Assembly (NCBI GenBank): GCA_041660605.1
Contig: JBAZWB010000001.1
Location: forward strand, 462,879 to 526,878
Direction of reading: 5' to 3'
Source: Patescibacteria group bacterium
Lineage (GTDB): Bacteria > Patescibacteriota > Patescibacteriia > UBA10025 > JAHIVO01
DNA: 64,000 nucleotides
Numbering within the stretch: the first letter of the stretch is position 1; the number at the start of each line of letters is the position of its first letter. The position numbers and the translations under genes were made by a program. The notes under the pieces are model-generated. The model was not told the DNA's origin, did not search any database, and saw nothing but the letters and a program-made list of their open reading frames with translations. Shown one piece after another: positions 4,226-28,318 of the stretch.

Positions 4226-4405
4226 GAAGTAGAACAACTCCGCGCGTGAATAGTTGTTACGGATTACGTGTCCGCAAACAAGTTACGGCCACTTCACCCT
4301 TCGCAACATTCCCGCTTTTTCCTAAAAATGCCAAGCATTTTTAGGAATTGATAATTTAAAATTATTTATAGTAGTTAATCTAGAGGCTCAGCTTGCCCCG
4401 CCTCA

Positions 4406-4478
4406 GCCGATGTAGCTCAGTTGGTAGAGCAACTCCATGGTAAGGAGTAGGTCGTCGGTTCAATTCCGACCATCGGCT
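4406..4478 (+). tRNA. tRNA-Thr (anticodon GGT)
   Basis: Manual fold: acceptor GCCGATG/CATCGGC, D arm GCTC-AGTTGGT-AGAGC, anticodon arm ACTCC-ATGGTAA-GGAGT, T arm GTCGG-TTCAATT-CCGAC. 73 nt, no encoded CCA. Confidence 0.85.
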
Positions 4479-4480
4479 GA

Positions 4481-4636
4481 GGCGGGGTGAAGTAGAGCAA
4501 CTCCAGGCAAAGTCCTATACCCAAAACGAAAAGCTGTGGTATGTGAGTAAGAAGATCAGGGTTCCCCCGCCACAATAAATTTAATCTATTTATGTAGGGC
4601 GGGGTCCGCCTTTGGCGGAAATTCCGACCATCGGCT
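4481..4636 (+). pseudogene. degenerate tRNA-Thr(GGT)-like duplicate
   Basis: Keeps ...AGAGCAACTCC (D arm 3' strand through anticodon-stem 5' strand) and ATTCCGACCATCGGCT (T loop through acceptor). About 115 nt of unrelated sequence replaces the anticodon region. Confidence 0.4.
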
Positions 4637-4824
4637 TAGAGCGGGTAATACTACGGTTCCAGGATCACAGGCTTGACTGTTTTATATAAAGATAGTAAAT
4701 TCATAAGTTATTTTACAATGGTTTGTTCGGATACTAGCACCGAATAGCCTCACCAGGTGGGCAGGTACCCCCGGCATGCGCCGGGGCAGGCTCCGTGGTC
4801 AGTCTCTGTATTAACAACTATAGA

Positions 4825-4884
4825 GAATTAATGATCAAGTCATATAAAGGCGGAGAAGCTTTTAAGAGGCTCATTAAGAAATAA
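4825..4884 (+). pseudogene. 3'-terminal remnant of a second GIY-YIG gene copy
   Basis: Encodes ...LMIKSYKGGEAFKRLIKK*, nearly identical to the last 19 codons of the 5070..5312 gene, directly after L copy A. Confidence 0.55.
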
Positions 4885-4967
4885 ATAACCTCACCAGGTG
4901 GGCAGGTACCCCCGGCATACGCCGGGGCAGGCTCCGTGGTTAATCTCTGTATTAACAACTATGAAGT

Positions 4968-5003
4968 GGGTGGGTACCGAAGTGGTCAAACGGGGCAGAC
5001 TGT
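4968..5003 (+). pseudogene. tRNA-Tyr 5' half (through anticodon position 34/35) followed by unrelated insert
   Basis: Identical to the first 36 nt of the intact tRNA-Tyr at 5396, then diverges at ...GACTGT|CCCGCC. The AAATCTGC motif of the anticodon loop/stem reappears 52 nt later. Confidence 0.5.
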
Positions 5004-5069
5004 CCCGCCACAAAAAATAATATTGAATGAAGGCGGGATGCCGCCAGAGGCGGCATAAATCTGCATAAT

Positions 5070-5312
5070 ATGTTTAATGTCTATATATTAATAAGTCTGA
5101 GTTCAAGTTATTATTATATTGGTCACACAGTAAATATAGTTAAAAGGCTTAAGCAGCATAATTCAGGACATGTAAGGTCTACAAAAAGAGGTATCCCTTG
5201 GATATTAGTTTATAAAGAAATATGTAAGACAAAATCGGAAGCATACAAAAGGGAATTATTAATTAAATCATATAAAGGCGGAGAAGCTTTTAAGAGGCTC
5301 ATTAAGAAATAA
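5070..5312 (+). CDS. small GIY-YIG nuclease family protein (Slx1/YhbQ-like URI domain)
   Basis: YILISLSSSYYYIGHTVNIVKRLKQHNSG...RGIPWILVYKE...KSEAYKRELLIK matches the GIY-YIG consensus (GIY, YIG, R, E, N). Confidence 0.8.
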   Translation: MFNVYILISLSSSYYYIGHTVNIVKRLKQHNSGHVRSTKRGIPWILVYKEICKTKSEAYKRELLIKSYKGGEAFKRLIKK

Positions 5313-5321
5313 ATAACCTCA

Positions 5322-5625
5322 CCAGGTGGGCAGGTACCCCCGGCATACGCCGGGGCAGGCTCCGTGGTTATTCTCTGTATTAACAACTATGAAGTGGGTG
5401 GGTACCGAAGTGGTCAAACGGGGCAGACTGTAAATCTGCTGGCTCCGGCCTACGTAGGTTCGAACCCTACCCCACCCACTTCATAGTTGTCCTTAAGGAG
5501 ACTGCTTGTGCCGCCGAATGGCGGCATAAATCTGCTGGCTCTCCTCGAGTCTGAGCGACGAGGTCGCTAGTCCTCGGAGTCGATGACCGGCCTACGTAGG
5601 TTCAAACCCTACCCTGCCCACCTGG
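5322..5625 (+). other. nested tRNA-like structure enclosing tRNA-Tyr, with co-varying acceptor strands
   Basis: 5' CCAGGTGGGCAGG-TA-CCCC(CGGCATACGCC)GGGG-CAG... at 5322-5360. 3' ...AAATCTGCTGGCTC[46-nt insert]CGGCC-TAC-GTAGG-TTCAAAC-CCTAC-CCTGCCC-A-CCTGG at 5528-5625. The 13-bp outer stem pairs perfectly. Confidence 0.25.
5396..5478 (+). tRNA. tRNA-Tyr (anticodon GTA), class II with long variable arm
   Basis: Acceptor GGGTGGG/CCCACCC, anticodon arm GCAGA-CTGTAAA-TCTGC, variable arm TGGCTCCGGCC, T arm GTAGG-TTCGAAC-CCTAC. Flanked by an 18-bp perfect extended stem. Confidence 0.85.
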
Positions 5626-5665
5626 AGAGAGTTATTCAGAAGTAGTTTGTCCCGCCATAGCTGCT

Positions 5666-5737
5666 GCCACCCTAGCTCAGTGGTAGAGCAACGGTTTTGT
5701 AAACCGTAGGTCGTCGGTTCAAGTCCGACGGGTGGCT
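5666..5737 (+). tRNA. tRNA-Thr (anticodon TGT)
   Basis: Acceptor GCCACCC/GGGTGGC, D arm GCTC-AGTGGT-AGAGC, anticodon arm ACGGT-TTTGTAA-ACCGT, T arm GTCGG-TTCAAGT-CCGAC. 72 nt; flanked by CCCGCCATAG / CTATGGCGGG. Confidence 0.85.
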
Positions 5738-5740
5738 ATG

Positions 5741-5808
5741 GCGGGATAAAGTAGAGCAACGGTTTTGTAAACCGTAGGTCGGGGGTTCGAATCCCTTCGC
5801 TGGCTCCA
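5741..5808 (+). pseudogene. chimeric tRNA pseudogene
   Basis: Copies tRNA-Thr(TGT) D-arm 3' strand through variable loop (AGAGCAACGGTTTTGTAAACCGTAGGTC), then a different T arm/acceptor ending in CCA. The 5' acceptor does not pair with the 3' strand. Confidence 0.35.
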
Positions 5809-5849
5809 GCCAAAATTATAAATAAATCATTAAAATGTAATAAAAATTT

Positions 5850-6005
5850 ATGTCACAGGACAATTTGTTAAAATTTGAATGCAAGGAATGCCATCACATC
5901 AATTACCATTCCAAAAAGAATAAAAAAATTCTGAAGAACAGGATTGAATTGAAAAAATTCTGCAAATGGTGCAAAAAACATACCTTGCATAAGGAAACGA
6001 AATAA
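5850..6005 (+). CDS. rpmG: 50S ribosomal protein L33
   Basis: 51-aa ORF below the ORF-track cutoff: [51 protein letters not shown]. Zinc-ribbon C..C...C..C and C-terminal HTLHKETK are typical L33. Confidence 0.85.
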
Positions 6006-6144
6006 TGTTGAAAACCCCTTTCAGAAAGTGGTTTTCAATGCTTTCCGCAAACTAGATGATTCGCTCGCCCTGAAATGTCATGCCAGAGGCAGATCCGTCT
6101 TTGGCGGAAATTCAGGGCTCGCGGTTGATAAAATAAATTTTCAG

Positions 6145-6219
6145 GGGAGCATAGTGAAATGGCTATCACAAGGGTCTCCAAAACCCTTATTCTAGGTTCG
6201 AGTCCTAGTGCTCCCGCCA
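6145..6219 (+). tRNA. tRNA-Trp (anticodon CCA), CCA end encoded
   Basis: Acceptor GGGAGCA/TGCTCCC, anticodon arm AGGGT-CTCCAAA-ACCCT, T arm CTAGG-TTCGAGT-CCTAG, then GCCA. Confidence 0.85.
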
Positions 6220-6516
6220 GTGTCCGCCAACGGGCGCTTAGAGTGGAAAACTTTTCTAAAGAAATTTATAGTTAGAATCATGTTCAGCAAGGACATGGTG
6301 TATTTTGCATTAAATATATATTTTCTTTAACATTAAAATGAGGGAGGAAACGACGAATTTGTCACAAAAGAAATAGACGTCGGATAAGGAGCGGGTTAAC
6401 CCCCCCCCTCTTTTTTTGTGCTCAGCGGAAAATTTTACCACCCACGAAGCCAAAAAATAAAAAACCAGGCAAAGGCCCGGTTTTCCAGTTAGAGTACAAT
6501 TCGCTAAAGGAACAGA

Positions 6517-10840: not shown

Positions 10841-10916
10841 GACAGGTTTTTAGTAATAAAAAAAGGCCGTAGGTGCATGGACCTACGACCGTTAGATTGT
10901 TGTTGTGTGATTTGGA

Positions 10917-12437
10917 TCAGAGGGACACTCCGTAAAGTGTTCCGAACTTTTTCGTGATATATTCCTTCCAGTATCTTGCCGTCAGCGGTTCGCCGGTGGC
11001 TTTCGTCAGGACGCTGTTCAGGGAATCGACATGTCCGGTGGGGTAAATATTACCGCTCAGCCAAGTACGAAGATTGGCGAATTTTCCCGTTGCGAAATCT
11101 GCTTCATATTCCGGGTCAATCTTGGTAAAGGCGGCGAATTCCTGGGCGCTGGCCAGCGTTCCCAGGGTATAGGTGCCGAAATAGCCGAAATATCCCGATC
11201 CCCAGTGAATATCCTGAAGAGCGCCTTCTTTCGGATCTGTTGGCCGGTAGTCGACGTACTTCTCTACCAGGTTGGCGAAAACATCAGGAATATCAGCGAC
11301 CGATATTTGGTCGGAAAGCAGGAGCTGCTCGATTTTGAAGCGGACAAGGATATGCCCATGGTATGTCAGCTCGTCAGCCTCCACGCGGATTCCGCTGGGC
11401 CTGACCAGGTTGATGGCCCTGTAGAATTCCTCCAGTGGGACATTCTGGAATTCGCGGAACATCAGCTGAAGGTGTGGGTAGAAGTATTTCCAGAAACTCC
11501 AAGAACGGCAGACCATGTTTTCCCACAACCGGGACTGCGATTCATGCAGAGCCATCGAGAGAAACATACTGCTGTTATCAAATCCCCAGAAAAGATCCGG
11601 TGCGCCTTGTTCAAGCATGGCATGTCCGGCTTCGTGCGCTGTGCCGAATATGCCGGCAGCCAGGTAGTTTGGGTAAAATCTGGTGGCAATGCGGTGGTCT
11701 CCGGCGCAAATGGTACTGGCAAAAGGATGGGCGGCTATTGCCAGGGATCCACGCTTGAAATCATAGCCGATAACCGTAGCCAGATATTCAGCCAGTTGCC
11801 GTTGCTTGTCAGTCGGGAAACAGCCGCGCAAAACCGCGTCAGAGCGATTTGCGCCAGCACCTGTTATTGTCTGAATGGTTTTTCCCAGCCATTCGCCGAG
11901 ATCATCCAATACCTGGAGAACTTCCGCGGTAGTCGCGCCAGGTTCGAATTGTCCGAGCAGCGCGTTCGAAATTGAGTCAGGTTCGCCGGGATCAGCGCCA
12001 AGAAGAGCCGCTTCTTCTTTCGCCAGAGTGAGGACATGCGTCAATTCGGGCGCGAAGAGCGTGAAATTTCCCTCAGCGCGCGCTCTGGTCCAGACATTCG
12101 TGGCTTTGGCATGAGCCTGGTTGCGTCGTTCGACAAAATCAGCTGGCAGGGCGAGAGCGCGATTAAGGCAGAGGCGCAGACGCTTAACTAGCAATGCCTC
12201 AAACGGGGACAGTTCTTTGGTGGCAGTTTCGCATCGTCCAAGTGCGTCACTTACCGCGCTTGAAGTAAAGGCTTCGTGTGCCAATTTTGTAGCGAAAGCG
12301 GATCGTCTTTCCGAGTCTTTTTCGCCTCCGACTGGCCGGCCTGTTCTCGCGTCATAATTCGATAGGGCGGCTAGTTGGCTTAATAGATTTGCCGATTCGA
12401 GTACGGCAGTTAACTTGTCAACGTTCGGATGTGCCAC
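10917..12437 (-). CDS. M32 family carboxypeptidase (Taq-like)
   Basis: HPFASTICAGDHRIATRF, HEAGHAMLEQG (HExxH) and IHWGSGYFGYFGTYTLG motifs; gene visibly GC-richer than neighbours. Confidence 0.8.
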   Translation of the reverse strand: MAHPNVDKLTAVLESANLLSQLAALSNYDARTGRPVGGEKDSERRSAFATKLAHEAFTSSAVSDALGRCETATKELSPFEALLVKRLRLCLNRALALPADFVERRNQAHAKATNVWTRARAEGNFTLFAPELTHVLTLAKEEAALLGADPGEPDSISNALLGQFEPGATTAEVLQVLDDLGEWLGKTIQTITGAGANRSDAVLRGCFPTDKQRQLAEYLATVIGYDFKRGSLAIAAHPFASTICAGDHRIATRFYPNYLAAGIFGTAHEAGHAMLEQGAPDLFWGFDNSSMFLSMALHESQSRLWENMVCRSWSFWKYFYPHLQLMFREFQNVPLEEFYRAINLVRPSGIRVEADELTYHGHILVRFKIEQLLLSDQISVADIPDVFANLVEKYVDYRPTDPKEGALQDIHWGSGYFGYFGTYTLGTLASAQEFAAFTKIDPEYEADFATGKFANLRTWLSGNIYPTGHVDSLNSVLTKATGEPLTARYWKEYITKKFGTLYGVSL

Positions 12438-12598
12438 AGAATACCTCCTTGCTGTGGATAGTTTTCGATTTGTTCGGTTTTTGTTTCGGTTAAATTTATT
12501 AGCTTAGCTTACTTATAAATAAGCTATATGTCAAGTATAAATTCAAAAAAAGAGAAGGCCGCCCAGAGGGTGACCTTCATAAAACTCGTGTGGAAAGC

Positions 12599-12808
12599 TT
12601 AAGTACCTTCGTTTACTTCCTGAAAGTGCGTCATGAAATTGACGCCTTTCATGTCGTGCGTTCGCGTCGATAGGATGATAGTGTAGAGTGTCGTTCCCAG
12701 CACGCCTTTTTTCCAGTCGACCCGATATACTTCACCGACTGTTATGTCGGTGTACGCTTGAAATGCCTTGGTGCATGTGGCTCTAAAAGTGCCTACTTCA
12801 GTTTCCAT
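12599..12808 (-). CDS. small hypothetical protein, paralog A
   Basis: Shares TF+A+C.KA...VG.VY.VD pattern with the adjacent 12855..13070 ORF. Confidence 0.4.
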   Translation of the reverse strand: METEVGTFRATCTKAFQAYTDITVGEVYRVDWKKGVLGTTLYTIILSTRTHDMKGVNFMTHFQEVNEGT

Positions 12809-12854
12809 ATTTTCTCCATCGGATGTATTATGGGTTTCTTCCCTGCTAGTAAGA

Positions 12855-13070
12855 CTAGACTCTCACGAAGTGTTCAGCGTAGCCATTATCACTGAAGTTA
12901 TGTGAGTGCCCCGGCTCGTGGTCAATAGCGAAATTTGTTGAGGCAGATCCGGTACCAACCGATTTGACATCGTATACCGTGCCGACAATAAAATCTGAGC
13001 GTCTTGATACTGCCTTGATACATTTTGCCTTAAAGGTGCTTTGCTCACCTTGCATGATCTCCTCCATCAA
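12855..13070 (-). CDS. small hypothetical protein, paralog B
   Basis: Tandem paralog of 12599..12808. Confidence 0.4.
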   Translation of the reverse strand: MMEEIMQGEQSTFKAKCIKAVSRRSDFIVGTVYDVKSVGTGSASTNFAIDHEPGHSHNFSDNGYAEHFVRV

Positions 13071-13368
13071 AAAGATAAAAATAAATGTACTACTCCTTAA
13101 ATTAAATCAGTATAATTTGGTTTGGACGCGTTGTCAATAGTTCCTGAGGTTTTTATCCACGCAGGTTATGTCCTATATCCTGAAACTAGTTCAGGATGAC
13201 AATAAAGGTTAACTAGCATTTGTCACCCTGAATTTATTTCAGGGTATAGAGTTAATATGTACTGAAAACAGAAGGACATAACCTATTGTTATTACGCAAC
13301 TTAACCAAATCTTCATTGTTTTTATGATATACTATTAACATATGAGATTGATAATTTAAATAAATATT

Positions 13369-13710
13369 ATGTCATTTAAAACAGTAGTCCAAACCAGCGA
13401 AGTGCCGGTTGGAACCATGAAGCGATTGAATACCGGGGATCAGGAAATCCTCGTTGCCAATGTCGGCGGCTCTTTTTACGCCATTAATAATAAGTGTCCG
13501 CATATGGGAGGATCGCTGGCAGACGGGAAGCTTGATGGCAGTATTGTCCATTGCCCTCGCCATGGATCTATGTTCGACGTGAAAACCGGCAAGAACGTCA
13601 AAGGCGCCAAGATCGCTTTTGTGAAAATGAAGGTCAAAGACACTATGTGCTATCCGGTTCAGGTATCCGGGACGGATGTTCTGGTGGATATTGAGGGGGG
13701 AGTAAATTAA
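13369..13710 (+). CDS. Rieske [2Fe-2S] domain protein
   Basis: CPHMGGSL...x17...CPRHGSMF matches CxH...CxxH Rieske ligands. Confidence 0.75.
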   Translation: MSFKTVVQTSEVPVGTMKRLNTGDQEILVANVGGSFYAINNKCPHMGGSLADGKLDGSIVHCPRHGSMFDVKTGKNVKGAKIAFVKMKVKDTMCYPVQVSGTDVLVDIEGGVN

Positions 13711-13871
13711 ATAATCAATTTTCCAATTTCCAAGTCCCAAACAATATTCAATGATCTAATGTTCAATTGATAGTTAGAAATTTTCTGAGTTTTTTGGTGG
13801 AGGGGGTTGTTTTTGTTATCAATTAGGTTAAAATTAAGGTATAAAGGATTTTAAAAGTAATCAAAACACTT

Positions 13872-14666
13872 ATGGACAACATACTTGAGCCAAAAACAGA
13901 AGACCGCCGTTTTATCAAGTTGCGGCGTTTTAATTTAATAATGGCGGTTTTGCATTTTGTCCAGGGAATCGTCATGCTGGTTTTAAGCACGGATTTTTCC
14001 CTGCCAGTCACCTCCGCTTTTCTCAAATTTAATACTGCCTCGCAGGCACTCCAGCCAAGTTTGCACACACTATTTAATCTGCGCATCGGGCCATTAGTGG
14101 CTGGATTTCTTTTTATCTCGGCTTTGGCTCACGCCCTGATTTCAATCTGCCCTGGCATTAACCGGTGGTATAATCGCAATTTAGCCAAAGGCATTAATCT
14201 GGCCCGCTGGATGGAATACGCATTCAGTTCTTCACTGATGATCGTTGTCATCGCCATGCTGGTGGGCATTTATGACATAGTCAGTTTGTTGGCGATATTT
14301 TTCCTAAACGCCATGATGATATTATTCGGCTGGATAATGGAAGTGCATAACCAGACCACCCAAAAGACCAACTGGATCTCGTTTTGGTTCGGTAGCCTGG
14401 CCGGGTTTATTACCTGGGTGGCTGTGGCCATTTATTTATTCGGTTCCGGCGAGCCGGGGATGAGAGCACCGACGTTTGTCTATTGGATTTATTTTTCCAT
14501 ATTCCTGTTTTTCAACTGTTTTGCCATTAACATGATTTTGCAGTATAAGAAAGCGGGTAAGTGGCGGGATTACCTTTACGGCGAACGAGCTTATATCATC
14601 CTCAGCCTGGTCGCCAAGTCATTACTGGCCTGGCAGGTTTTTTTCGGCACTTTGCGGCCGGTTTGA
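13872..14666 (+). CDS. heliorhodopsin
   Basis: 7-TM protein collinear with HeR 48C12: RWMEYAFSSSLMIVVIA, AIFFLNAMMILFGW, FWFGSLAGFITW, GERAYIILSLVAKSLLAWQVFFGTL, including the TM7 lysine. Confidence 0.85.
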   Translation: MDNILEPKTEDRRFIKLRRFNLIMAVLHFVQGIVMLVLSTDFSLPVTSAFLKFNTASQALQPSLHTLFNLRIGPLVAGFLFISALAHALISICPGINRWYNRNLAKGINLARWMEYAFSSSLMIVVIAMLVGIYDIVSLLAIFFLNAMMILFGWIMEVHNQTTQKTNWISFWFGSLAGFITWVAVAIYLFGSGEPGMRAPTFVYWIYFSIFLFFNCFAINMILQYKKAGKWRDYLYGERAYIILSLVAKSLLAWQVFFGTLRPV

Positions 14667-14707
14667 TTTTTGAATATTAATCCACCCGCCTTGTTTTAGC
14701 CCTAATA

Positions 14708-16072
14708 TTGGCTTATAATAAACTTGGAGCAAACAGTAATTATATTGCTATGAAAAATACTAACTTATTTTTATACGGCATAATATTAGTGGCGTTGCTG
14801 TTTTTTGGTTATGCGCCAACGACTCAGGCCGCCATCGACGATTGTCCCGCTGGTTATGAATGGCAGCGGATGAGCGGGGTGGGTTGTGTGCAGATAAACT
14901 GCGCCACGGTTCCGGACGGGCATTATTCATATACCAGCCAGTGCATCTGCGGCTCTTCGGGCAGTGAGTGGGAAAACGCCGCAGATCCCAATAAAGAGTG
15001 CAATTATTCCCACGATTATGCCAGTTGTCCGAATTGCCTTTATGCCTGCGTGCATTTGAATGAAGAATGCCCGGCTGCACCCGGTGATGCTACTACGAAT
15101 ACTAATACGGTAAGTACGAATAAAAATATTAATATAGTATTGAATTCAAACACGGCAGTCAACACCAGCGCCTCTGCCAATCAGAATGTTAATCTGCTCC
15201 TGGCTAATACCGCCCTGCCTTCGCTGTCCATGCCTGCTATCACCAACAACGGTTCTTGTACAGATGAATGCAATAAATATTTACGGGATAAGAAAAATGC
15301 CGTAGTGGTTTCAGCTGAAGGGGTGTTTCCCGACTGCCAGTGCCAGATAGACGTGCGGGATGAGAATGGCACGCTGACCCAGACCATTTCCTCAGACGGA
15401 CCGGTGGTGACTACTTATACTTATGATTCATCAGGCGCGCTGACTGATAAGAGCGTCATCAACCGCACCGAAGAAGTGGAGAAAGTCCGCAAGCGCCTGG
15501 GCTATAAATACACCGAGGAGCAAATAGATAAGCTGCTGGATCCGACAGTGATAGATAAATGGTTTCAGGATCAAACCGGCAAGATTGTCACTGCCACTGG
15601 CTTGAGTGAGCCGCAATTCTGGTGGCAGCATTTCGTGGCCGTGCTGGACCACGGTTTTGGGGGCAACAGCGCTGATTTTGTGGATACGCACAATTTCGGA
15701 CGCTGTGGAGATTCCATGCAGTGGCTGGAACGCGATCTCGTCAGCCAGCTGCACTTGGGAGATGACCCTGAAGAGCCGGGACAGAAGCACGAGGCCATCC
15801 TGTCCATTACCGGAGAAAAATACGGCAATTTTTTAAATCACACCTCGATTTTAGTGAGACCGGCCGGCATAACGAATTCTGAATGGGAAGATATTGTTAA
15901 AGAGCTGAAAAAGCTATCCGGCGGTCAGGAAGATAATCCGGGCATCCAGCCGAATAATCTCCAAAACGTCGATCCGCGTCTGATGGACGCGAAAGTATTG
16001 GATCCATATAAAAAGCAGATCACCACCGTACGGGAGTTCATCAAAGGATGGTCTTACATCCGGATCAGCTAA
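14708..16072 (+). CDS. secreted Cys-rich protein with N/T-rich linker, unknown function
   Basis: Signal/TM after the internal Met (14750), 14 Cys in the first ~110 residues, then a low-complexity linker and a C-terminal domain. Confidence 0.5.
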   Translation: MAYNKLGANSNYIAMKNTNLFLYGIILVALLFFGYAPTTQAAIDDCPAGYEWQRMSGVGCVQINCATVPDGHYSYTSQCICGSSGSEWENAADPNKECNYSHDYASCPNCLYACVHLNEECPAAPGDATTNTNTVSTNKNINIVLNSNTAVNTSASANQNVNLLLANTALPSLSMPAITNNGSCTDECNKYLRDKKNAVVVSAEGVFPDCQCQIDVRDENGTLTQTISSDGPVVTTYTYDSSGALTDKSVINRTEEVEKVRKRLGYKYTEEQIDKLLDPTVIDKWFQDQTGKIVTATGLSEPQFWWQHFVAVLDHGFGGNSADFVDTHNFGRCGDSMQWLERDLVSQLHLGDDPEEPGQKHEAILSITGEKYGNFLNHTSILVRPAGITNSEWEDIVKELKKLSGGQEDNPGIQPNNLQNVDPRLMDAKVLDPYKKQITTVREFIKGWSYIRIS

Positions 16073-16082
16073 TTAGAAATTT

Positions 16083-16580
16083 ATGCTGAAAAAATTATTT
16101 AAATTTATTTTATTCTTGATCCCGACATTAGCGATAATTTTAATTGTGGCTTACGTGGTTTTTAATCATGTGCCGGTCTCAACCTATGCGGTACAAGAAA
16201 CAAACCCGCAAGACCAGTGGGGGACTATCACTGGTTCATTAAGCTATCCCAGCGAAACTATTCCGCCAATGGGCATCTGCGCCAAATCAGTAAAAGGCGT
16301 GGAAATGTTCTGCACTTATAAAATGATTCAGGACGATAAATACGCCAATAGCTATGGTTATGAATTGTCCGTGCCGCCGGACAATTATTATGTTTTTGCC
16401 CATCTGATAACAGCCGGCAAAGAAAATATCGGTTATACGGATGAGTACCAGGCATATTATTCCAAATTCGTAACCTGCGGCCAGCTGGTTGAGTGCACTT
16501 CGCATAAGGCAATTAAGGTGGAAGTTTCGAATAATCAAAAAATTGATGATATCGACCCCGTTGATTGGTATAACACATGA
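16083..16580 (+). CDS. membrane-anchored hypothetical protein
   Basis: N-terminal TM helix, ORF. Confidence 0.45.
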   Translation: MLKKLFKFILFLIPTLAIILIVAYVVFNHVPVSTYAVQETNPQDQWGTITGSLSYPSETIPPMGICAKSVKGVEMFCTYKMIQDDKYANSYGYELSVPPDNYYVFAHLITAGKENIGYTDEYQAYYSKFVTCGQLVECTSHKAIKVEVSNNQKIDDIDPVDWYNT

Positions 16581-16712
16581 GAAGGCAACCAAAGGTTTCC
16601 TTCTCATCGCTTATCCTTCCATATTGATATCGCTCACCTTGGGACCTCCCGCCCGACTGCTTCGCATTCGAAGCGGGCGCGGTATAACCCAAGGTTCGCG
16701 ATGATTTAATTT
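16580..16712. repeat. MITE-like structured repeat, copy 1
   Basis: GAAGGCAACCAAAGGTTTCCTTC hairpin, ATCGCTCACCTTGGG...CCCAAGGTTCGCGAT long stem, ends CGCGATGATTTAATTTA. Paralogous to 17259-17362. Confidence 0.5.
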
Positions 16713-16735
16713 AAAAATTATTAAATAATCGGCTA

Positions 16736-16948
16736 ATGGATAATCAAGGAAATTTAACTGTAAAAACGTTGGCCATAAAAAAATGGTTGGTGTGGTTTAT
16801 CGTAATCGTTGTTTTAGGTGCAATATTATTTATCCCTTATTTGCGCATCCCGGCCAAGTGCATTCCTTGTCCATCTGAGATGACTTACTGTCCGCCTTGC
16901 CCGACGTATAACCAGAGTCTGGCCGGGTATTTGAGGGATAAATTATAA
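16736..16948 (+). CDS. small membrane protein with CxxC pairs
   Basis: TM helix then CIPCPSEMTYCPPCP. Confidence 0.3.
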   Translation: MDNQGNLTVKTLAIKKWLVWFIVIVVLGAILFIPYLRIPAKCIPCPSEMTYCPPCPTYNQSLAGYLRDKL

Positions 16949-17163
16949 GTAAATATATTCTCCGAGCGCAGGCGTCTCTGCCTGCGCTCACTTGCCCACC
17001 TGGTCGCGCACCCACAGAGGGGTGCGCTCGGGATTGGAAGATTTCGGTATGCACCCTTGTCCAGAGCGGGTCCCCGCCTGCGTTGCCAGTGCGGCGGGCA
17101 GGTCTGTGCCAGCGATGTGCTCGTTTCAGCATCTCAAATTTACTCGCGAGTAAAGTATGATAT

Positions 17164-17253
17164 TATTAATATATGCCCGATTTCAAGCCAACCAACGAAG
17201 ACTTCCAACATATCAAGGAGAAAATCGTTGATTATCTCTCGCGTCAGGGGTTT
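17164..17253 (+). pseudogene. duplicated 5' fragment of recX
   Basis: MPDFKPTNEDFQHIKEKIVDYLSRQGFSL*. A 44-nt stretch is identical to 17446-17489 of the intact gene, then a repeat element follows. Confidence 0.5.
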
Positions 17254-17258
17254 TCCTT

Positions 17259-17362
17259 ATGAAGGGACACCTACGGTTTCCCTTCATCGCTACTTTTCCC
17301 TTAGTTGTATCGCTCGCTCCGGGGCCCACGAGACCCGTGAGCTCGCGATGATTTATTTATAA
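17259..17362. repeat. MITE-like structured repeat, copy 2
   Basis: GAAGGGACACCTACGGTTTCCCTTC hairpin + ATCGC...GCGAT stem + CGCGATGATTTATTTA terminus. Confidence 0.5.
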
Positions 17363-17412
17363 AATGGAAAAGGTAATATTTTGGTTTATACTAAAAATTT
17401 TTTAATTAACGT

Positions 17413-17952
17413 ATGCAGACTGCAAGCCCAACACAAGATGATTTTCAGCACATCAAGGAGAAAATCGTTGATTATCTCTCGCGTCAGGGGTTTTCGGAGG
17501 CGAAATTAATACAGAAAATTACTAACCTGAAACGTTATTACCCGCACACCCGGCGGTACCAATTTTATACGCCAGAAAATATTCAAATAGTTATTGAAGA
17601 ATTAAAAACTCTCGGCCTGATTGATGATGAGAAATACTGCCGTGAGGTATTGCGGCATTTGCAGGACAGGAAAGACGGATTGTACCGGATCAAAGATAAA
17701 ATGCGCCGGCGCCTGATACCGCCTGCCATTATTGATAAAGTGTTGAATGAATGGAAGCAAACCGGCGTGGCGCAGGATTACACGGCCATTATCCGCGAGA
17801 CAAAAAGGAAATACGGGCGTCTCAAGGAAAAATTTCTGCTGCCAAAAGAGCAGTATGCGGTTAAGAGTAAGATGTACACTTTCCTTGCGCAGAAGGGGTA
17901 CGGGTCGGAGGAGATTAAGGAGATACTGCGCCAGGCAATGGCGGATGAATAA
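17413..17952 (+). CDS. recX: RecX family recombination regulator
   Basis: 179 aa, three-helix repeats, size and pattern typical of RecX. Confidence 0.65.
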   Translation: MQTASPTQDDFQHIKEKIVDYLSRQGFSEAKLIQKITNLKRYYPHTRRYQFYTPENIQIVIEELKTLGLIDDEKYCREVLRHLQDRKDGLYRIKDKMRRRLIPPAIIDKVLNEWKQTGVAQDYTAIIRETKRKYGRLKEKFLLPKEQYAVKSKMYTFLAQKGYGSEEIKEILRQAMADE

Positions 17953-20745: not shown

Positions 20746-22302
20746 ATGCCCCAAAAAACTACAAAAAAATCCAACGGCACGAACGCCGGCTTTGAAGCGA
20801 CTCTCTGGGCCGCAGCTGACAAAATGCGCAATAACATGGATCCGGGTGAATATAAGCACGTGGTTCTTGGTTTGATTTTTATCAAGTACATTTCCGACGC
20901 TTTTGAAGAGATTTACAACAAAATCAAAGCTGATCCTGACCACTACGAAGGTCAAGAAGAAGATAGAGACGCATACACGTCGGAAAGTGTCTTCTGGGTG
21001 CCACAAGATGCACGTTGGGAATATTTGAAATCAAATGCCAAGAAGCCAGAAATCGGCAAGCTTGTTGACGATGCAATGGTTGCAATTGAGAAAGACAACC
21101 CCAGCCTAAAAGGAGTTCTCCCAAAAAGTTATGCCCGTCCTGACTTAGACAAAGTTCGGCTTGGCGAGTTAATCGACCTCATCAGCACCATCGGCCTCGG
21201 CGATAAAGAAAGTCGAAGTAAAGATATTCTTGGTGGCGTCTATGAGTATTTCCTCGGACGGTTTGCTTCTGCCGAAGGTAAGGGCGGTGGTGAATACTTT
21301 ACTCCAAAATCTGTTGTGAAATTGCTCGTGGAAATGCTCGAGCCATACAAAGGCCGCGTCTACGACCCCTGTTGCGGTTCAGGCGGCATGTTTGTGCAAA
21401 GTGAAAAATTCGTTGAAACACACGGTGGCAGCAGGCACGACCTCGCAATTTATGGACAGGAATCAAACCCGACCACTTGGCGCCTGTGTAAAATGAACTT
21501 GGCCATTCGCGGAATCGAAGGCGACCTTGGGCCTCATAACGCCGACACATTTCACAATGATTTACATAAAGAGCTCAAAGCTGATTACATTCTCGCCAAT
21601 CCGCCATTCAATATCAGCGACTGGGGCGGTGAGAGATTGAAAGACGATGTCCGCTGGAGTCTTGGCGTGCCGCCTGCAGGTAATGCCAACTACGGCTGGA
21701 TTCAGCATATGGTGCATCATTTAGCCACTACTGGTATCGCTGGGTTTGTCTTGGCAAATGGCTCACTGTCGTCAAACACATCTGGTGAAGGGGAGATACG
21801 AAAAAAGATGATCGAAAAAGGCCTGGTGGACTGTATCGTCGCTATGCCAAGTCAGCTTTTCTACACCACGCAAATTCCTGCGTGTTTGTGGTTTGTTTCA
21901 CGGGAGCGGCACGACCACAAATTCCGCGACCGACATGATGAAATTCTATTCATTGACGCTCGTAAAATGGGGACAATGATCACGCGTAAAAATAGGGAAT
22001 TAACCACAGAAGATATTGAAAAAATATCTGGCGTCTACCACGACTGGCGCAATAAAAAGGGTAACTATAAAGACGTTAAGGGTTTTTGCAAAGCAGCGAA
22101 AATTGAGGAAGTTGAAAAAGCCGGATTTGTACTCACCCCCGGCCGTTATGTTGGCACGGATTATGTGGAAGAAGATGACGGTACTTTTGAAGAGAAAATG
22201 ACAAAATTGACGAAGGAATTATCTGGTCAATTCAAGCAGTCAAAAGAACTTGAGGAAAGGGTGAAGAAAAACCTCAAAGATATCGGCTATGAAATCAAAT
22301 AA
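20746..22302 (+). CDS. hsdM: Type I restriction-modification system methyltransferase subunit
   Basis: HsdM N-terminal domain plus N6-MTase motifs ([13 protein letters not shown] in [12 protein letters not shown]). Confidence 0.9.
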
Positions 22303-23251
22303 AGTTTTAGTAATCTTTGAGACGAATATTATTAGAAATCCGAAATATAATTTTGGCGAAATAGATTTTGGATCGGATTTTGGCTCAGTACGAGAATATG
22401 TAAGAAATAATGAACTAACAAATCTTGTTGATTTCGCAATTGCACAGATGAGTATCGACGAACTATCTTATGGAAGGCAAGCAGAATATCAGAGTGATAA
22501 GGGGAAGCTTTTTGAGTTAAGTAGCAGAATGAATGGCGTGCCAGGATTTAAAATTATTAATCCGCAAGATGATTTTCAGTTTCCCACATTTTATAGGGGG
22601 CATGTTAATAAATTTATTAAACGAAATAAGTTGATCATAATTGGGTATCCTCCAAAAATAGTCTTTAGTAATGTAATTCTAAGAAGTTTAGAGAAGCGCC
22701 CGCCTTTTTTGGTGTCAAATCAACATTCTGATTATGGGTTTAAAGATGTAATCATTTGGGAATCGATTTTATGCTTTAAGTCAATACGAAAATATAATAA
22801 AGTTGTTTTATTTACAAATGATTTAGGATTTGAAAGTCAATGCGAAAAAGAATTTTCAAAAGTTCACCCGTGTTACTTTAAAATTTGTAAAGATTTCGAG
22901 AGTGTTATTAAAGAACTTGAAGTAAGTGAGGGTATCAAAGTTGCGATTGAGGGTGACACTGATATAGCGGACGATGAGCGCACGGAACTTATAGCGCTGG
23001 TGTATTCAGATTATTTTATTTCAAGTTTAACTAACTTTATTAAAGAAAGTATAAAAATTGATGAAGGTAGATCTATTGAGCTTTTGAGTCCGATGACTAA
23101 TTCTGAAGACAATATTATTGACGATGAAGTCGTTGGAAAAATTATTTATTCCAAAGCCAGGGTTAAAGTTGATGGTGAAATAAAGAGAATTAATATTAAA
23201 ACTGTTCTTGATGATGCTAATGGCATAGAAAGTCATGAGATATATGAATAA
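22289..23251 (+). CDS. unknown protein with predicted PIN-like N-terminal domain, embedded between hsdM and hsdS
   Basis: Pattern [11 protein letters not shown] ... DVIIWESIL ... VLFTNDLGF resembles the PIN acidic-residue layout; overlaps hsdM by 14 nt and hsdS by 17 nt; very AT-rich. Confidence 0.45.
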
Positions 23252-24392
23252 AACGAGCGCAAAATCTATTAAGTCGGAAACGGAGTATTACCCAGATGGG
23301 TGGAAACTGAATATAATTGGGGATTTTTTATCACTAGAATATGGCAAAGGACTAAAAGAAGATCTGCGAAAGCCGGGTAAGGTTCCTGTGTATGGTTCGA
23401 ATGGTGTTGTTGGTTATCATAATGAACAAATGGTAGATGGTCCAGGAATTATTGTTGGAAGGAAGGGGAGTGCGGGGGAGGTTATTTTTTCTAAAAAAGG
23501 ATTTTTCCCAATTGATACAACATATTTTGTTAAAACTAATTTAGATAAAAGCTATATATATTATTTGTTAAAAAACCTTGACCTTAAAAAATTTGTTGGT
23601 AGTAGCGCAGTCCCTGGTTTAAATAGGAATGATGTTTATTCTCAAATAGTAGCAATACCCAAAGCGGAAAACGAACAACAAAAAATCGCCGAAATACTTT
23701 CTTCCCTCGACGACAAAATAGAGCTCAACCGGCAGATGAATGCAACCTTAGAAAAAATCGCCAGTACACTTTTCAAAAAATGGTTTGTGGATATTGGTGA
23801 TGAGTTGCCAAAGGGGTGGAAGAAAGGTGCAATCAGCGATTTCGGAAGTGTCATATGCGGGAAGACACCACCAAAATCGGTAAAGGAGTATTTTGGTGGC
23901 AATTTTCCTTTTATTAAAATACCCGATATGCATGGGAGTCCTTTTATCTTTATTACAGAAGATAGTCTTTCTGAGATGGGGATGAATTTTCAAAAAAATA
24001 AGGTAATCCCAGCTGGTTCTATTTGTGTAAGTTGTATTGCTACAGTTGGCTTAGTAAGTATGACGACCGTTAATTCGCAAACCAATCAGCAAATTAATTC
24101 GATTGTTCCTTCGGAGAAGTATTATCAGTTTTATCTATACGAAACATTTAAAAATATTAGTGGACTACTGCAAAGAATGGGTAGTAGTGGTTCTGCAACA
24201 CTAAATGTGAATACAACCTCTTTTTCCGCTATAGAAATATTAAGACCCACTGACGCAGCCCTAGAAAAATTCGACAGAATTGTAAGGCCATTTTTTGATC
24301 AAATAAAACATAATTTACAAGAAAATATCAATTTATCAATTCTTAGAGACTCACTTTTGCCTCGTTTAATGAGCGGAAGGATTAGGGTATGA
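23235..24392 (+). CDS. hsdS: Type I restriction-modification system specificity subunit
   Basis: Two target-recognition domains separated by conserved IPKAENEQQKIAEILSSLDDKIELNRQ; C-terminal LPRLMSG. Confidence 0.85.
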   Translation: MRYMNKTSAKSIKSETEYYPDGWKLNIIGDFLSLEYGKGLKEDLRKPGKVPVYGSNGVVGYHNEQMVDGPGIIVGRKGSAGEVIFSKKGFFPIDTTYFVKTNLDKSYIYYLLKNLDLKKFVGSSAVPGLNRNDVYSQIVAIPKAENEQQKIAEILSSLDDKIELNRQMNATLEKIASTLFKKWFVDIGDELPKGWKKGAISDFGSVICGKTPPKSVKEYFGGNFPFIKIPDMHGSPFIFITEDSLSEMGMNFQKNKVIPAGSICVSCIATVGLVSMTTVNSQTNQQINSIVPSEKYYQFYLYETFKNISGLLQRMGSSGSATLNVNTTSFSAIEILRPTDAALEKFDRIVRPFFDQIKHNLQENINLSILRDSLLPRLMSGRIRV

Positions 24393-25210
24393 TATTTTTA
24401 CGATATTTTATTAAAAGATATTGGTCATATATTATCAACGTTTGTGTTGGCATTTTTTCACTTTTAGCACCATTTATTTTTCCATTTCCAAAAAATATCT
24501 TTGGCGTTGAGTTGTCATTAGGAATATATCTTTCTGTTTTTTCATTATTTTTAGCATTTATTTTGTCTCTATTCCTAGCCTCCAGACCGAAAAAATTATT
24601 TCATATTTCTTTAACAAGTAGAAAACATGGTGATTTGTGGGTTGGCAATGGGACCTTTGACTATGACCGAGAACGTAAGACGCATTTCATTACCAATTCA
24701 TTTTATGGCTTTATTTTCCCACCAGCACTTAATTTAGTTGATTATAAAGTAACCTTTGAATTTAAGATTGCAACGTCGTGCCTTGGTGTAATTGTCCGGG
24801 CAGTAAATTCATACGATTTCATAATGCTACAAATTGAGAAGCAGGGCATTAACCCACATGTATTTTTGAATGGTGCTTGGCAACGATTTGAACATTCAGC
24901 GACAAATCTTTCATTTGTTCCTATGATAAATGAGGATAAATGGTATAAGGTCACAATATGTTGTTTAAAAAAGAAAATTTCCATTCAAATGATAGATTTT
25001 GATTTTAATCGCGAATGGCAAATTCCACAAACAATAGTTCTTAATTTTCCAAAAGGTAAACCTAAAGATAAAATACCGGGCGAAGAAATTCAAGTTGAGG
25101 AAGTTACACCAATATATTTACCTGTGAATTTAGATATTGGCACTATTGGTTTCAGGAACGCAGGTCAAGAAAAAGCGTATATAAAAAATGTTTATATTGA
25201 ATCAATTTAA
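24389..25210 (+). CDS. membrane-anchored protein of unknown function embedded between hsdS and hsdR (possible jelly-roll/LamG-like domain)
   Basis: Two N-terminal TM helices, then a ~200-aa soluble domain (YKVTFEFKIATSCLGVIVRAVNSYDFIMLQIE); ATGA overlap with hsdS. Confidence 0.45.
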   Translation: MIFLRYFIKRYWSYIINVCVGIFSLLAPFIFPFPKNIFGVELSLGIYLSVFSLFLAFILSLFLASRPKKLFHISLTSRKHGDLWVGNGTFDYDRERKTHFITNSFYGFIFPPALNLVDYKVTFEFKIATSCLGVIVRAVNSYDFIMLQIEKQGINPHVFLNGAWQRFEHSATNLSFVPMINEDKWYKVTICCLKKKISIQMIDFDFNREWQIPQTIVLNFPKGKPKDKIPGEEIQVEEVTPIYLPVNLDIGTIGFRNAGQEKAYIKNVYIESI

Positions 25211-25219
25211 TTAAGTTAC

Positions 25220-28200
25220 ATGTCATATAAAAAATACACCGAATCTGATTTAGAAAACGCAATCCTTGAATGGCTTGAGGAGTTAGGGCACTCGGTTATA
25301 TTTGGTCCAAATATTGCTTTTGATGGCGAATCGCCAGAACGCAAAACATATCAAGATATTGTTTTAGTTGAACGGCTGCGGGCTGCTGTCCAGCGAATCA
25401 ATGCTGAAATTCCTCATGAAGCGCGAGAAGAGGCAATAAAAAAAGTGGTTAACGCTGCGTATTCTAGCCCGAGCCCGATGGTTACCAATCGTGAGTTTCA
25501 TAGAATGTTGGTTGAAGGTGTTGATGTTGAATACCGACGTAAAGATGGGTCAATTGCAGGGGATAGAGTTTTACTTATTGATAAAGAGAAGCTAGGAAAC
25601 AATGACTGGCTGGCTGTGAATCAGTACACGGTCATTGAGAATAATCACAATCGACGGCCTGATGTGGTGGTGTTTGTGAATGGTTTGCCGTTGGTGGTGT
25701 TTGAGCTCAAAAATCCAGCGGATGAATATGCCAAAATTCAGGGTGCATTCAATCAGATTCAAACATACAAAAACGAGATTTCATCACTTTTTACTTATAA
25801 TGCATTTTGCGTAATTGTTGACCACGTGAAAAATGGGCTGGTGGGTACTATATCGGCAAACATGGATCGATTCATGAGCTGGAAAAGTGTTGATGGCCAG
25901 AAAGTTATTAAGAGTAATGATGTTGAGACACTGATAAAAGGAATGTTTGATAAGCAGCGTTTGCTGGATATTGTTTCGAATTTTATTGTATTTGAAGATG
26001 AAAAAGATTCTAAGAATAACGTCAATAGAACCACCAAGAAGCTCGCAGCGTATCACCAGTATTTTGCGGTAAATAAAGCTGTTGAGCGAACGGTTGTAGC
26101 GACATCGCCAGACGGTGATAGAAGGGCAGGGGTGGTGTGGCATACGCAAGGGTCAGGCAAGAGTTTGAGCATGGTGTTCTATGCCGGGAAGATTATCCAG
26201 CGGCTAGATAACCCAACGCTTGTACTACTTACCGACCGGAATGACTTAGATGGCCAGCTTTTCGGCGTGTTTTCCGGCTGCCATGATTTAGTTCGTCAAA
26301 CTCCAATGCAGGCAGATAATCGAGCACATTTAAAGACTCTGCTCAATGTGGCATCGGGCGGTGTTGTATTTACAACCATTCAAAAGTTTTTCCCTGAAGA
26401 TAAATTTGAAAAGCATCCATTACTTTCAGACCGCAAAAACATAGTCGTGATTGCTGATGAGGCGCACCGGAGCCAGTATGATTTTATTGACGGATTTGCG
26501 CGGCACATGCACGATGCTTTACCTAATGCATCGTTTATTGGCTTTACTGGTACGCCGATTGAACTATCCGATAAAAATACCCGGGCGGTGTTTGGAGAAT
26601 ACGTAGACGTGTATGATATTATTCGCGCGGTGAATGATAAAGCGACGGTGCCGATTTACTACGAAGCGCGGTTGGCAAAAATCGAGCTCATTAAAGCAGT
26701 CACGCCGACAATTGATAAGGATTTTGAAGAGCTGACCGAAGGTGAAGAGGTAGCAAAGAAAGAAAAACTCAAGAGTAAGTGGGCGCGGCTTGAAGCAATG
26801 ATTGGTTCCGAAAAGCGCATCGCCTTAATTGCTCGTGATATCATTGATCATTTTGAAGCGCGATGTTTTGCAATGGAAGGCAAGGGGATGATTGTGGCCA
26901 TGAGCCGAAGAATTGCAGTTGAATTGTATGAAGAAATTATTAAACTTCGGCCACAGTGGGCAAATACTGATTTACGAAAAGGTTTTATTAAAGTAGTAAT
27001 GACCGGATCAGCGAGCGACCCCGAAAATTACCAGCAACATATTCATACTAAAGATGATCGTGATGTTTTAGCGACTCGCATGAAAGATCCATCAGATGAA
27101 TTAAAGCTGGTGATTGTACGAGATATGTGGCTGACTGGTTTTGATGTGCCCTCACTTCATACGATGTATGTAGATAAACCGATGAAAGGGCATGGTCTGA
27201 TGCAGGCAATCGCACGTGTAAACCGAGTGTTTAAAGACAAACCAGGCGGATTGATTGTTGATTATCTTGGTATAGCGCCATCTTTGAAAGAGGCGGTTGC
27301 ACAGTATACGCAAGAAGGAAAAGAAGAGCCAACAATTGATCAAGAAGAGGCGGTGAGTGTTATGTTGAGTAAGTACGAGGTGGTGAAGGATATGTATCAT
27401 GAATTTGATTATAAGCAGTACTTTTCTGGTAAAGCCAAGGATAAAGCCGAGGTGGCTGGAAAGGCAATGGATTATATCCTGGGTTTAAGTGACGGGAAGA
27501 AACGCTATTTGCAAGCAGTAGCAGAATTATCTCAGGCCTTTGCCTTGTCTGTTCCAAATAGCGAAGCGTTGCGAATTCGTGATGAGGTAGCGTTTTTTCA
27601 AACTGTACGAGAATTTATTGCTTCATTTGAAAAAGGTGGTGGTTTGGGTGGGCCAACAATGGACGACTATGATCAGGCGATAAAGCAGCTCGTCGCTGGA
27701 GCGGTCGTATCAGATGAGGTAATTAATATTTTCAGTGCAGCTGGTTTGAAGACTCCAGACATTTCAATTCTTTCTGATGAATTTTTGAAAGAGGTGAAGA
27801 ATTTGAAACGAAAGAACGTTGCATTTGAGTTATTGAAAAAGTTGCTTAATGACGAAATTCGCTCCATGGAAAAGAAGTTTTTGGTAAAGTCGCGGTCATT
27901 CGCCAAAATGCTTGAAGAAACTATTAAGAAGTATCAAAATCAAACAATTGAAGTTGCGCAAGTTATTGCTGAGTTGGTTGATTTAGCTAAAAAGATTCGC
28001 GAAGAAAAGGGGAGAGGTGAAAATCTTAATCTTACTGAAGATGAGGTGTCATTTTATGACGCTCTTTGTGACAATGAGAGCGCTGTTCGCGAACTTGGCG
28101 ACGAAACACTGAAGAAGATTGCTCATGAACTCGTTTCGATGCTACGCAAAAATACTTCGATTGACTGGACACTCAAAGAACAGGTAAGGGCAAAATTACG

Positions 28201-28318
28201 AGTTTATGTGAAGAAGTTATTGAACAAGTTCAAATATCCGCCAGATAAACAAGAGGGAGCAACCAAGACAGTTTTAGAGCAAGCAGAAATTTTGTGTAAG
28301 GATTGGAGTGGGGAGTAA
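25220..28318 (+). CDS. hsdR: Type I restriction enzyme R subunit
   Basis: 1032 aa; helicase motif [13 protein letters not shown], motif [12 protein letters not shown]; HsdR N- and C-terminal architecture. Confidence 0.9.

Follow-up and report, generated by a model that had tools for sequence, protein, structure and literature searches.

The heliorhodopsin (HeR) encoded in the window, the whole 64-kb stretch of Patescibacteria DNA analysed here, belongs fully to a known family by profile and key residues and is a standard representative of it in a Patescibacteria (CPR) genome, and the gene for a small Rieske-type [2Fe-2S] ferredoxin that precedes it looks like a neighbour by accident of gene order. 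We give a probability of about 0.8 to the overall reading that this is a standard HeR acting as a non-pumping sensor with scavenged retinal, that an unrelated Rieske gene was shuffled in beside it, and that a link to UV damage is the best guess for its role. The HeR is already known: its exact sequence (P0001) has been named by NCBI 'heliorhodopsin HeR [Patescibacteria group bacterium]', and HeRs of the phylum have been published. The finding itself is therefore of little weight, adding one more standard HeR with an uninformative Rieske neighbour; the pairing of HeR with a pyrimidine-dimer DNA glycosylase in relatives is the more interesting lead. Since HeR neighbourhoods are highly fluid in Patescibacteria and Chloroflexota, one adjacent gene by itself should not be taken to imply a functional connection. 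The initial annotation of this DNA is partly supported, being correct on the gene identities, the lysine and a window devoid of retinal genes, and unsupported in its redox-linked reading.

Identity of the heliorhodopsin

Gene calls made independently on L001, a contig of 960 kb, and on L002, both of them public assemblies of this sequence, give the coordinates listed in Table 1 for the two genes. The HeR protein and its flanking sequence have identical counterparts in the 960-kb ENA metagenome contig and in a Logan contig. Full-length profile matches above the curated cut-offs place the protein in Pfam family PF18761 (E = 2.4e-102, 341.8 bits against a cut-off of 26.7, profile positions 1-242 of 242) and in the NCBIfam HeR equivalog NF038020 (349.8 bits against a cut-off of 100). 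Its matches in the PDB include TaHeR (6is6; E = 3.5e-78, query residues 9-264, 54.8% identity) and 48C12 (6su3; E = 1.8e-63, query residues 14-263); the full-length alignment to 48C12 described initially is correct, though TaHeR is closer. The Schiff-base lysine of TM7, which had also been noted, is K249, within LSLVAKSLLAWQ. It belongs to an SxxxK motif, here SLVAK (S245, K249), which aligns to S234/K238 of TaHeR and is among the commonest in a published survey of CPR/Patescibacteria HeRs (PMC9166423 / PMC8612252). Both this lysine and the TM3 Glu counterion with its His pair mark the protein as an HeR, and residues H28, H87, E115, S245 and K249 are all kept and invariant across 18 relatives.

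The structurally characterized TaHeR (PDB 6is6/7clj) and 48C12 (PDB 6su3/6uh3) share with the window HeR the SxxxK motif, the Glu counterion and the His pair; the counterion E107 and the pair H23 and H80 of 48C12 have E115 and H28/H87 as their counterparts. The window HeR differs from both in its host, a Patescibacterium, in a few loop indels and in being known here from sequence alone. The published HeRs of CPR/Patescibacteria (PMC9166423, PMC8612252) belong to the same phylum-level group and show no difference of substance.

Table 1. Positions of the genes and sequence elements discussed, in the window or in the related locus named
Feature	Position	Strand	Size or description	Basis or remark
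Rieske-type [2Fe-2S] ferredoxin	13369-13710	+	113 aa, small, soluble	Pfam, PDB, ligand alignment
Intergenic spacer	13711-13871	+	161 nt, AT-rich	between Rieske and HeR genes
Heliorhodopsin (HeR)	13872-14666	+	264 aa	Pfam, NCBIfam, PDB matches, residue alignment
Weak terminator-like hairpin	14644-14671	+	5 pairs and T-run	overlaps HeR stop codon; consensus match only
Three lineage-specific genes 3' of HeR	14708-16948	+	454-aa secreted Cys-rich, 165-aa membrane-anchored and 70-aa proteins	
GC-rich perfect hairpin	16960-16989	.	30 nt	100% identical upstream of recX in distant L168/L169
Duplicated recX 5' fragment	17173-17262	+	29 codons	68-nt core 88% identical to 17428-17495
RecX	17413-17952	+		Pfam; in L083 recX start overlaps Rieske stop
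Pyr_excise 3' of HeR	L003:4787-5119			
Pyr_excise 3' of HeR	L004:4817-5152			
Pyr_excise 3' of HeR	L019:4873-5196			
Pyr_excise 3' of HeR	L020:5081-5407			
Pyr_excise 3' of HeR	L039:2859-3185			
Pyr_excise 3' of HeR	L178:4802-5125			

The Rieske ferredoxin

The protein encoded upstream matches Pfam family PF00355 (E = 1.4e-17, 63.8 bits against a cut-off of 20.3), and its cluster ligands, C43-P-H45 and C62-P-R-H65 (CPH...CPRH), are invariant in 26 homologues; fold profile and CxH...CxxH ligands together identify a Rieske [2Fe-2S] ferredoxin. The reported succession of a small Rieske gene and an intact HeR gene is borne out by Pfam for both genes and by NCBIfam for the HeR. Compared with its homologues the Rieske protein carries four additional C-terminal residues (GGVN). 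Its closest PDB match is TodB, the ferredoxin of toluene dioxygenase (4emj, E = 7e-17). TodB (4emj/3dqy), BphF (1fqt/2e4p) and HcaC, its best structural and sequence matches, are likewise soluble proteins of about 110 aa with CxH...CxxH ligands. Unlike in those systems, the window Rieske has no oxygenase or reductase partner in the window, where Pfam scans detected neither an oxygenase alpha subunit nor a ferredoxin reductase. The protein also scores under every NCBIfam equivalog cut-off, and its assignment as an HcaC/TodB/BphF-type dioxygenase ferredoxin subunit was rejected, its best NCBIfam score being 71.3 bits against a cut-off of 113 (HcaC-type). By profile and ligands it is a generic soluble Rieske ferredoxin, and it would serve as a housekeeping redox protein unrelated to the HeR. 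The metabolism of CPR hosts is reduced.

Members of the small Rieske ferredoxin family are found widely among CPR-like genomes showing no oxygenase nearby (L083, L084, L085-L087). Their genes repeatedly lie close to GreA and sometimes close to flavoproteins: an HI0933-like protein is approximately 2 kb off in L083, and a Flavodoxin_2 protein adjoins the Rieske gene in L085.

Recurrence of the gene pair

On the HeR side, one genome per GTDB species yielded 562 confirmed HeR loci, of which the best 80 (57-73% identity; Patescibacteria, Chloroflexota and Actinomycetota) were taken with 4 kb on either side. Rieske genes were sought with an HMM derived from 90 window-Rieske homologues, applied under default filtering and again unfiltered at E <= 10, and with the regular expression CxH-x(14-26)-CxxH on six-frame ORFs of the 80 loci. 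Neither the unfiltered HMM nor the ligand expression detected the window's Rieske family within 4 kb in any of these best 80 of 562 loci. Three further distinct loci with closest-relative HeRs (72-76% identity) also lack it, giving 0/83 within 4 kb in a set that includes the closest relatives at 66-76% identity; the nearest HeR relative compared, the window's own genome aside, is approximately 76% identical. The neighbours in the three further loci are MazG and an FAD-oxidoreductase, NUDIX and a type I restriction-modification system, and Pyr_excise, respectively. Only one HeR locus carries any Rieske gene: in L057 (Gaiellales) a 168-aa protein is encoded 1.6 kb downstream. This protein is of the bc1 type (CTHMNC...CPCH) and unrelated to the window's family, and the locus was rejected as a recurrence of the pair.

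The Rieske-side sample comprised the four closest homologues (58-65% identity) and 80 metagenome loci, 415 kb in total, and no HeR was found near the Rieske homologues (0/85 loci). HeR neighbours vary in nearly every surveyed locus. The two genes do not form a conserved HeR-partner pair recurring in independent genomes, and their juxtaposition is, on this survey, peculiar to the window's genome. The suggestion that the Rieske adjacency hints at a redox-linked role thus finds no support among some 170 related loci.

Rieske proteins are absent from the ten recurrent classes of HeR operon partners (PMC11109279), and the sole match of a literature search on heliorhodopsin and Rieske was an unrelated SAR202 pangenome paper. 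Catalogues of CPR HeRs exist in which these proteins are tentatively connected with the mitigation of oxidative stress, and sensing of light or of oxidative stress has been suggested as their role (PMC9166423, PMC8612252). Because an enrichment of redox proteins near HeRs, namely glutaredoxin, thioredoxin, peroxidase and catalase, is already on record (PMC8612252), the general redox idea is not new. The chance that one specified family stands beside HeR in a genome of approximately 1,000 genes is a few per thousand, unlikely a priori; any suggestive neighbour would have been flagged, however, so that this after-the-fact coincidence weighs little.

The spacer and possible co-transcription

The Rieske gene had been placed 163 nt upstream of the HeR gene; it lies on the same strand, and the gap measures 161 nt. 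Scanning the spacer for consensus sites revealed nothing resembling a promoter or a terminator, its fold is no stabler than that of shuffled sequence (z = +0.93), and Rfam, run on 12400-17450 (spacer included) at the E-value threshold, returned no match. Since no terminator was detected in the gap, the two genes could share a transcript, which the weak terminator-like site after the HeR gene would bound. This arrangement, together with published HeRs that regulate soluble partners encoded alongside (PMC9769723, PMC11109279) and with the redox enrichment cited above, would suit a lineage-specific two-gene unit in which HeR, once activated by light, binds the ferredoxin or changes how active it is or where it is localised, thereby linking light to a redox or oxidative-stress response. 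We regard such a unit as very improbable, given that the pair was seen in the window's genome only (0/83 HeR loci and 0/85 Rieske loci), that Rieske orthologues at 58-65% identity adjoin GreA/RecX or other genes with no HeR nearby, and that the local gene order is scrambled among relatives. The gap also argues against it, being far above the 3-16 nt of the tightest recurrent HeR-partner pairs in the surveyed loci. In the published survey of HeR contexts, operons were defined by a common strand and a gap of <10 bp (PMC8612252); the Rieske and HeR genes agree with this definition in strand and exceed it in distance. That the HeR of one Patescibacteria lineage recruited the neighbouring Rieske ferredoxin as a light-regulated partner is scarcely credible; if true, it would be the first coupling of a rhodopsin to iron-sulfur redox chemistry.

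A variable segment between the FG-GAP gene and recX

Both the Rieske gene and the HeR gene are located in an interval of 6 kb bounded by an FG-GAP gene on one side and recX on the other. In L168 an FG-GAP gene (56% identical, 826 aa) is followed by a 30-nt hairpin and then by RecX (72% identical). As these three elements are contiguous there, window positions 10841-16959 represent extra material relative to that genome. A gene for an M32 peptidase and two small ORFs lie in this segment together with the Rieske gene, the HeR gene and three genes that match no Pfam or NCBIfam family; the last three have no homologue in the HeR and Rieske loci L003-L087 and were found only in the window's own contigs, L001 and L002. 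The GC-rich hairpin at 16960-16989 marks the right edge of the segment, and the duplicated recX 5' fragment beyond it records a local rearrangement.

Gene order around the pair is unstable among relatives. When the window proteins from 7.4 to 20.6 kb were compared with all fetched loci by tblastn, only FG-GAP, RecX, GreA, ABC, zf_Tbcl_2 and a few others recurred, always in differing order between loci, and the gene upstream of RecX is different in each of five relatives. L083 has the order GreA-Rieske-RecX (66, 63 and 69% identity to the window proteins, respectively), and in L084 the Rieske gene is 1.2 kb from GreA; in the window GreA is 21 kb off, at 34699. We do not claim Rieske-RecX as the ancestral order, since only one of the five distinct relatives' RecX loci (L083) displays it. 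Lineage-specific gene shuffling in the variable FG-GAP-recX stretch would have put the Rieske gene beside the HeR gene.

A different history, in which the HeR gene, alone or with the three genes 3' of it, was horizontally acquired as a cassette between Rieske and recX and the adjacency is an insertion scar, appears unlikely. It would account for the 3.7 kb that separate Rieske and recX in the window, as against the overlap of the Rieske stop with the recX start in L083, and it is in keeping with the four extra C-terminal residues of the Rieske protein, with the duplicated recX fragment and REP-like hairpin at the right edge, and with the lack of homologues of the 3' genes in L003-L087. The Rieske gene stands upstream of RecX in L083 only among the five relatives, however, and alignment of the L083 Rieske 3' end and recX 5' end to both window junctions revealed no clean insertion junction. 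Base composition is not distinctive (HeR 0.46, Rieske 0.48), giving no per-gene sign of foreign origin, and neither flanking direct repeats nor an integrase was found around the variable segment. Moreover, an FG-GAP gene lies approximately 3 kb upstream of HeR in both L004 and the window, which fits an older residence. Lineage-specific shuffling remains our preferred account.

Several repeats accompany this region. The GC-rich hairpins upstream of recX (16960-17031) have the form GAGCGCAGGC-N6-GCCTGCGCTC, then GCGCACCC-N6-GGGTGCGC, and look like REP-type elements. The hairpin at L168:7881-7910 equals the first of them over 30 nt, though the proteins of that genome are only 56-72% identical to the window's, and a similar GC-rich hairpin occurs at window positions 34354-34379. 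The 211-nt hairpin region upstream of recX has a fold z-score of -2.6 and no Rfam match. The recX 5' fragment is a partial tandem duplication of 17413-17502, located 240 nt upstream of the intact recX.

Proposed mode of action and retinal supply

From the family alignment we infer an inverted topology (N-terminus inside), retinal binding, a slow photocycle and no pumping. By homology, all-trans retinal would be bound at K249 with E115 as the counterion, H28/H87 would serve as the proton-accepting group, and the long-lived photointermediate would signal by direct contact with a partner protein. The window HeR is most likely a slow-cycling, non-pumping light sensor that modulates such a partner. 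TfHeR regulates a CPD-II photolyase (PMC9769723) and OcHeR the ABC transporter OmrDE (PMC11109279), both through protein-protein interaction, and HeR regulation of glutamine synthetase is among the work cited in PMC11109279. The window HeR is likely to share with TfHeR and OcHeR the light-driven modulation of a partner; their partner genes, however, recur beside HeR in many genomes, whereas the window's Rieske neighbour does not. Other recurrent HeR neighbours in our survey, MerR with a B12-binding domain, SDR and ABC ATPase, match published partner classes (PMC11109279).

Pfam searches of some 60 ORFs across the window, which covers 64 kb of an approximately 1-Mb genome, detected no BCD/blh, SQS_PSY, Amino_oxidase (crtI-type) or lycopene cyclase family, in agreement with the initial annotation, which had seen no carotenoid or retinal biosynthesis genes in the window. 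With no retinal-synthesis genes there, the HeR probably obtains its chromophore from an external source. Uptake of external retinal has been proposed for CPR rhodopsins. No photolyase was found among the same ORFs.

In the HeR relative of highest identity (L173, 76%), a 340-aa FAD-dependent oxidoreductase (HI0933_like/FAD_binding_3; L173:4770-5792) starts 4 nt past the HeR stop and has a weak Lycopene_cycl match; it is a possible redox or isoprenoid-related HeR partner in that lineage.

A pyrimidine-dimer glycosylase beside HeR in relatives

In six closer relatives, whose HeRs are 65-73% identical to the window HeR, a gene for a pyrimidine-dimer DNA glycosylase (Pyr_excise, PF03013, E = 1e-27) lies directly 3' of HeR on the same strand (Table 1). 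The gaps range from 3 to 318 nt, being 3-16 nt in four of the six loci and 87 nt and approximately 318 nt in the others. The six glycosylases are 55-83% identical to each other, and the remaining neighbourhood varies by locus. The window itself has no Pyr_excise gene. PMC11109279 does not include this family in its ten partner classes, and a literature search on heliorhodopsin and pyrimidine dimers returned no mention of an HeR-glycosylase pair. Because Pyr_excise recurs beside HeR in these relatives, a link to light and UV damage is the best guess for the clade; for the window HeR a role in the light/UV-damage response is likewise a best guess, carried over from its relatives. The glycosylase may be a second UV-repair partner of HeR besides photolyase, and the pair would then add another UV-repair enzyme to the link already published between HeR and photolyase.

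Additional sequence features

Two tandem small ORFs on the minus strand (12599-12808 and 12855-13070; 69 and 71 aa) match no Pfam family and are uncalled in the public record; from their shared residues (GTFRATCTKAF..VGEVYRV / STFKAKCIKAV..VGTVYDV) they look like paralogues. Two similar short hairpins, ATCCTGAAAC..GTTCAGGAT and ACCCTGAA..TTCAGGGT, occur at 13160-13250, inside the 300-nt spacer upstream of the Rieske gene, and have no Rfam match.

Across the whole window at the gathering threshold, Rfam reports four tRNAs only. A tRNA cluster at 4400-6220 (Thr-GGT, Tyr, Thr-TGT and Trp) is interspersed with 79-nt and 187-nt repeats that are 95-96% identical (4743-5431). A third tRNA-Thr-like copy at approximately 5751-5805, 84% identical to 5683-5737, is uncalled by ARAGORN.

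A type I restriction-modification system (HsdM, a PIN_12 protein, HsdS, a 273-aa protein and HsdR) occupies 20746-28318 and has a low GC content of 0.35; a similar HsdM-x-HsdS set directly follows HeR in L175, a Kerfeldbacteria relative. Finally, a Y1-transposase-like (RAYT-like) gene is present in two frames (34020-34298 and 34366-34611), broken at the GC hairpin at 34354-34379, and an intact homologue of it (42% identity) lies directly 3' of RecX in L168/L169.
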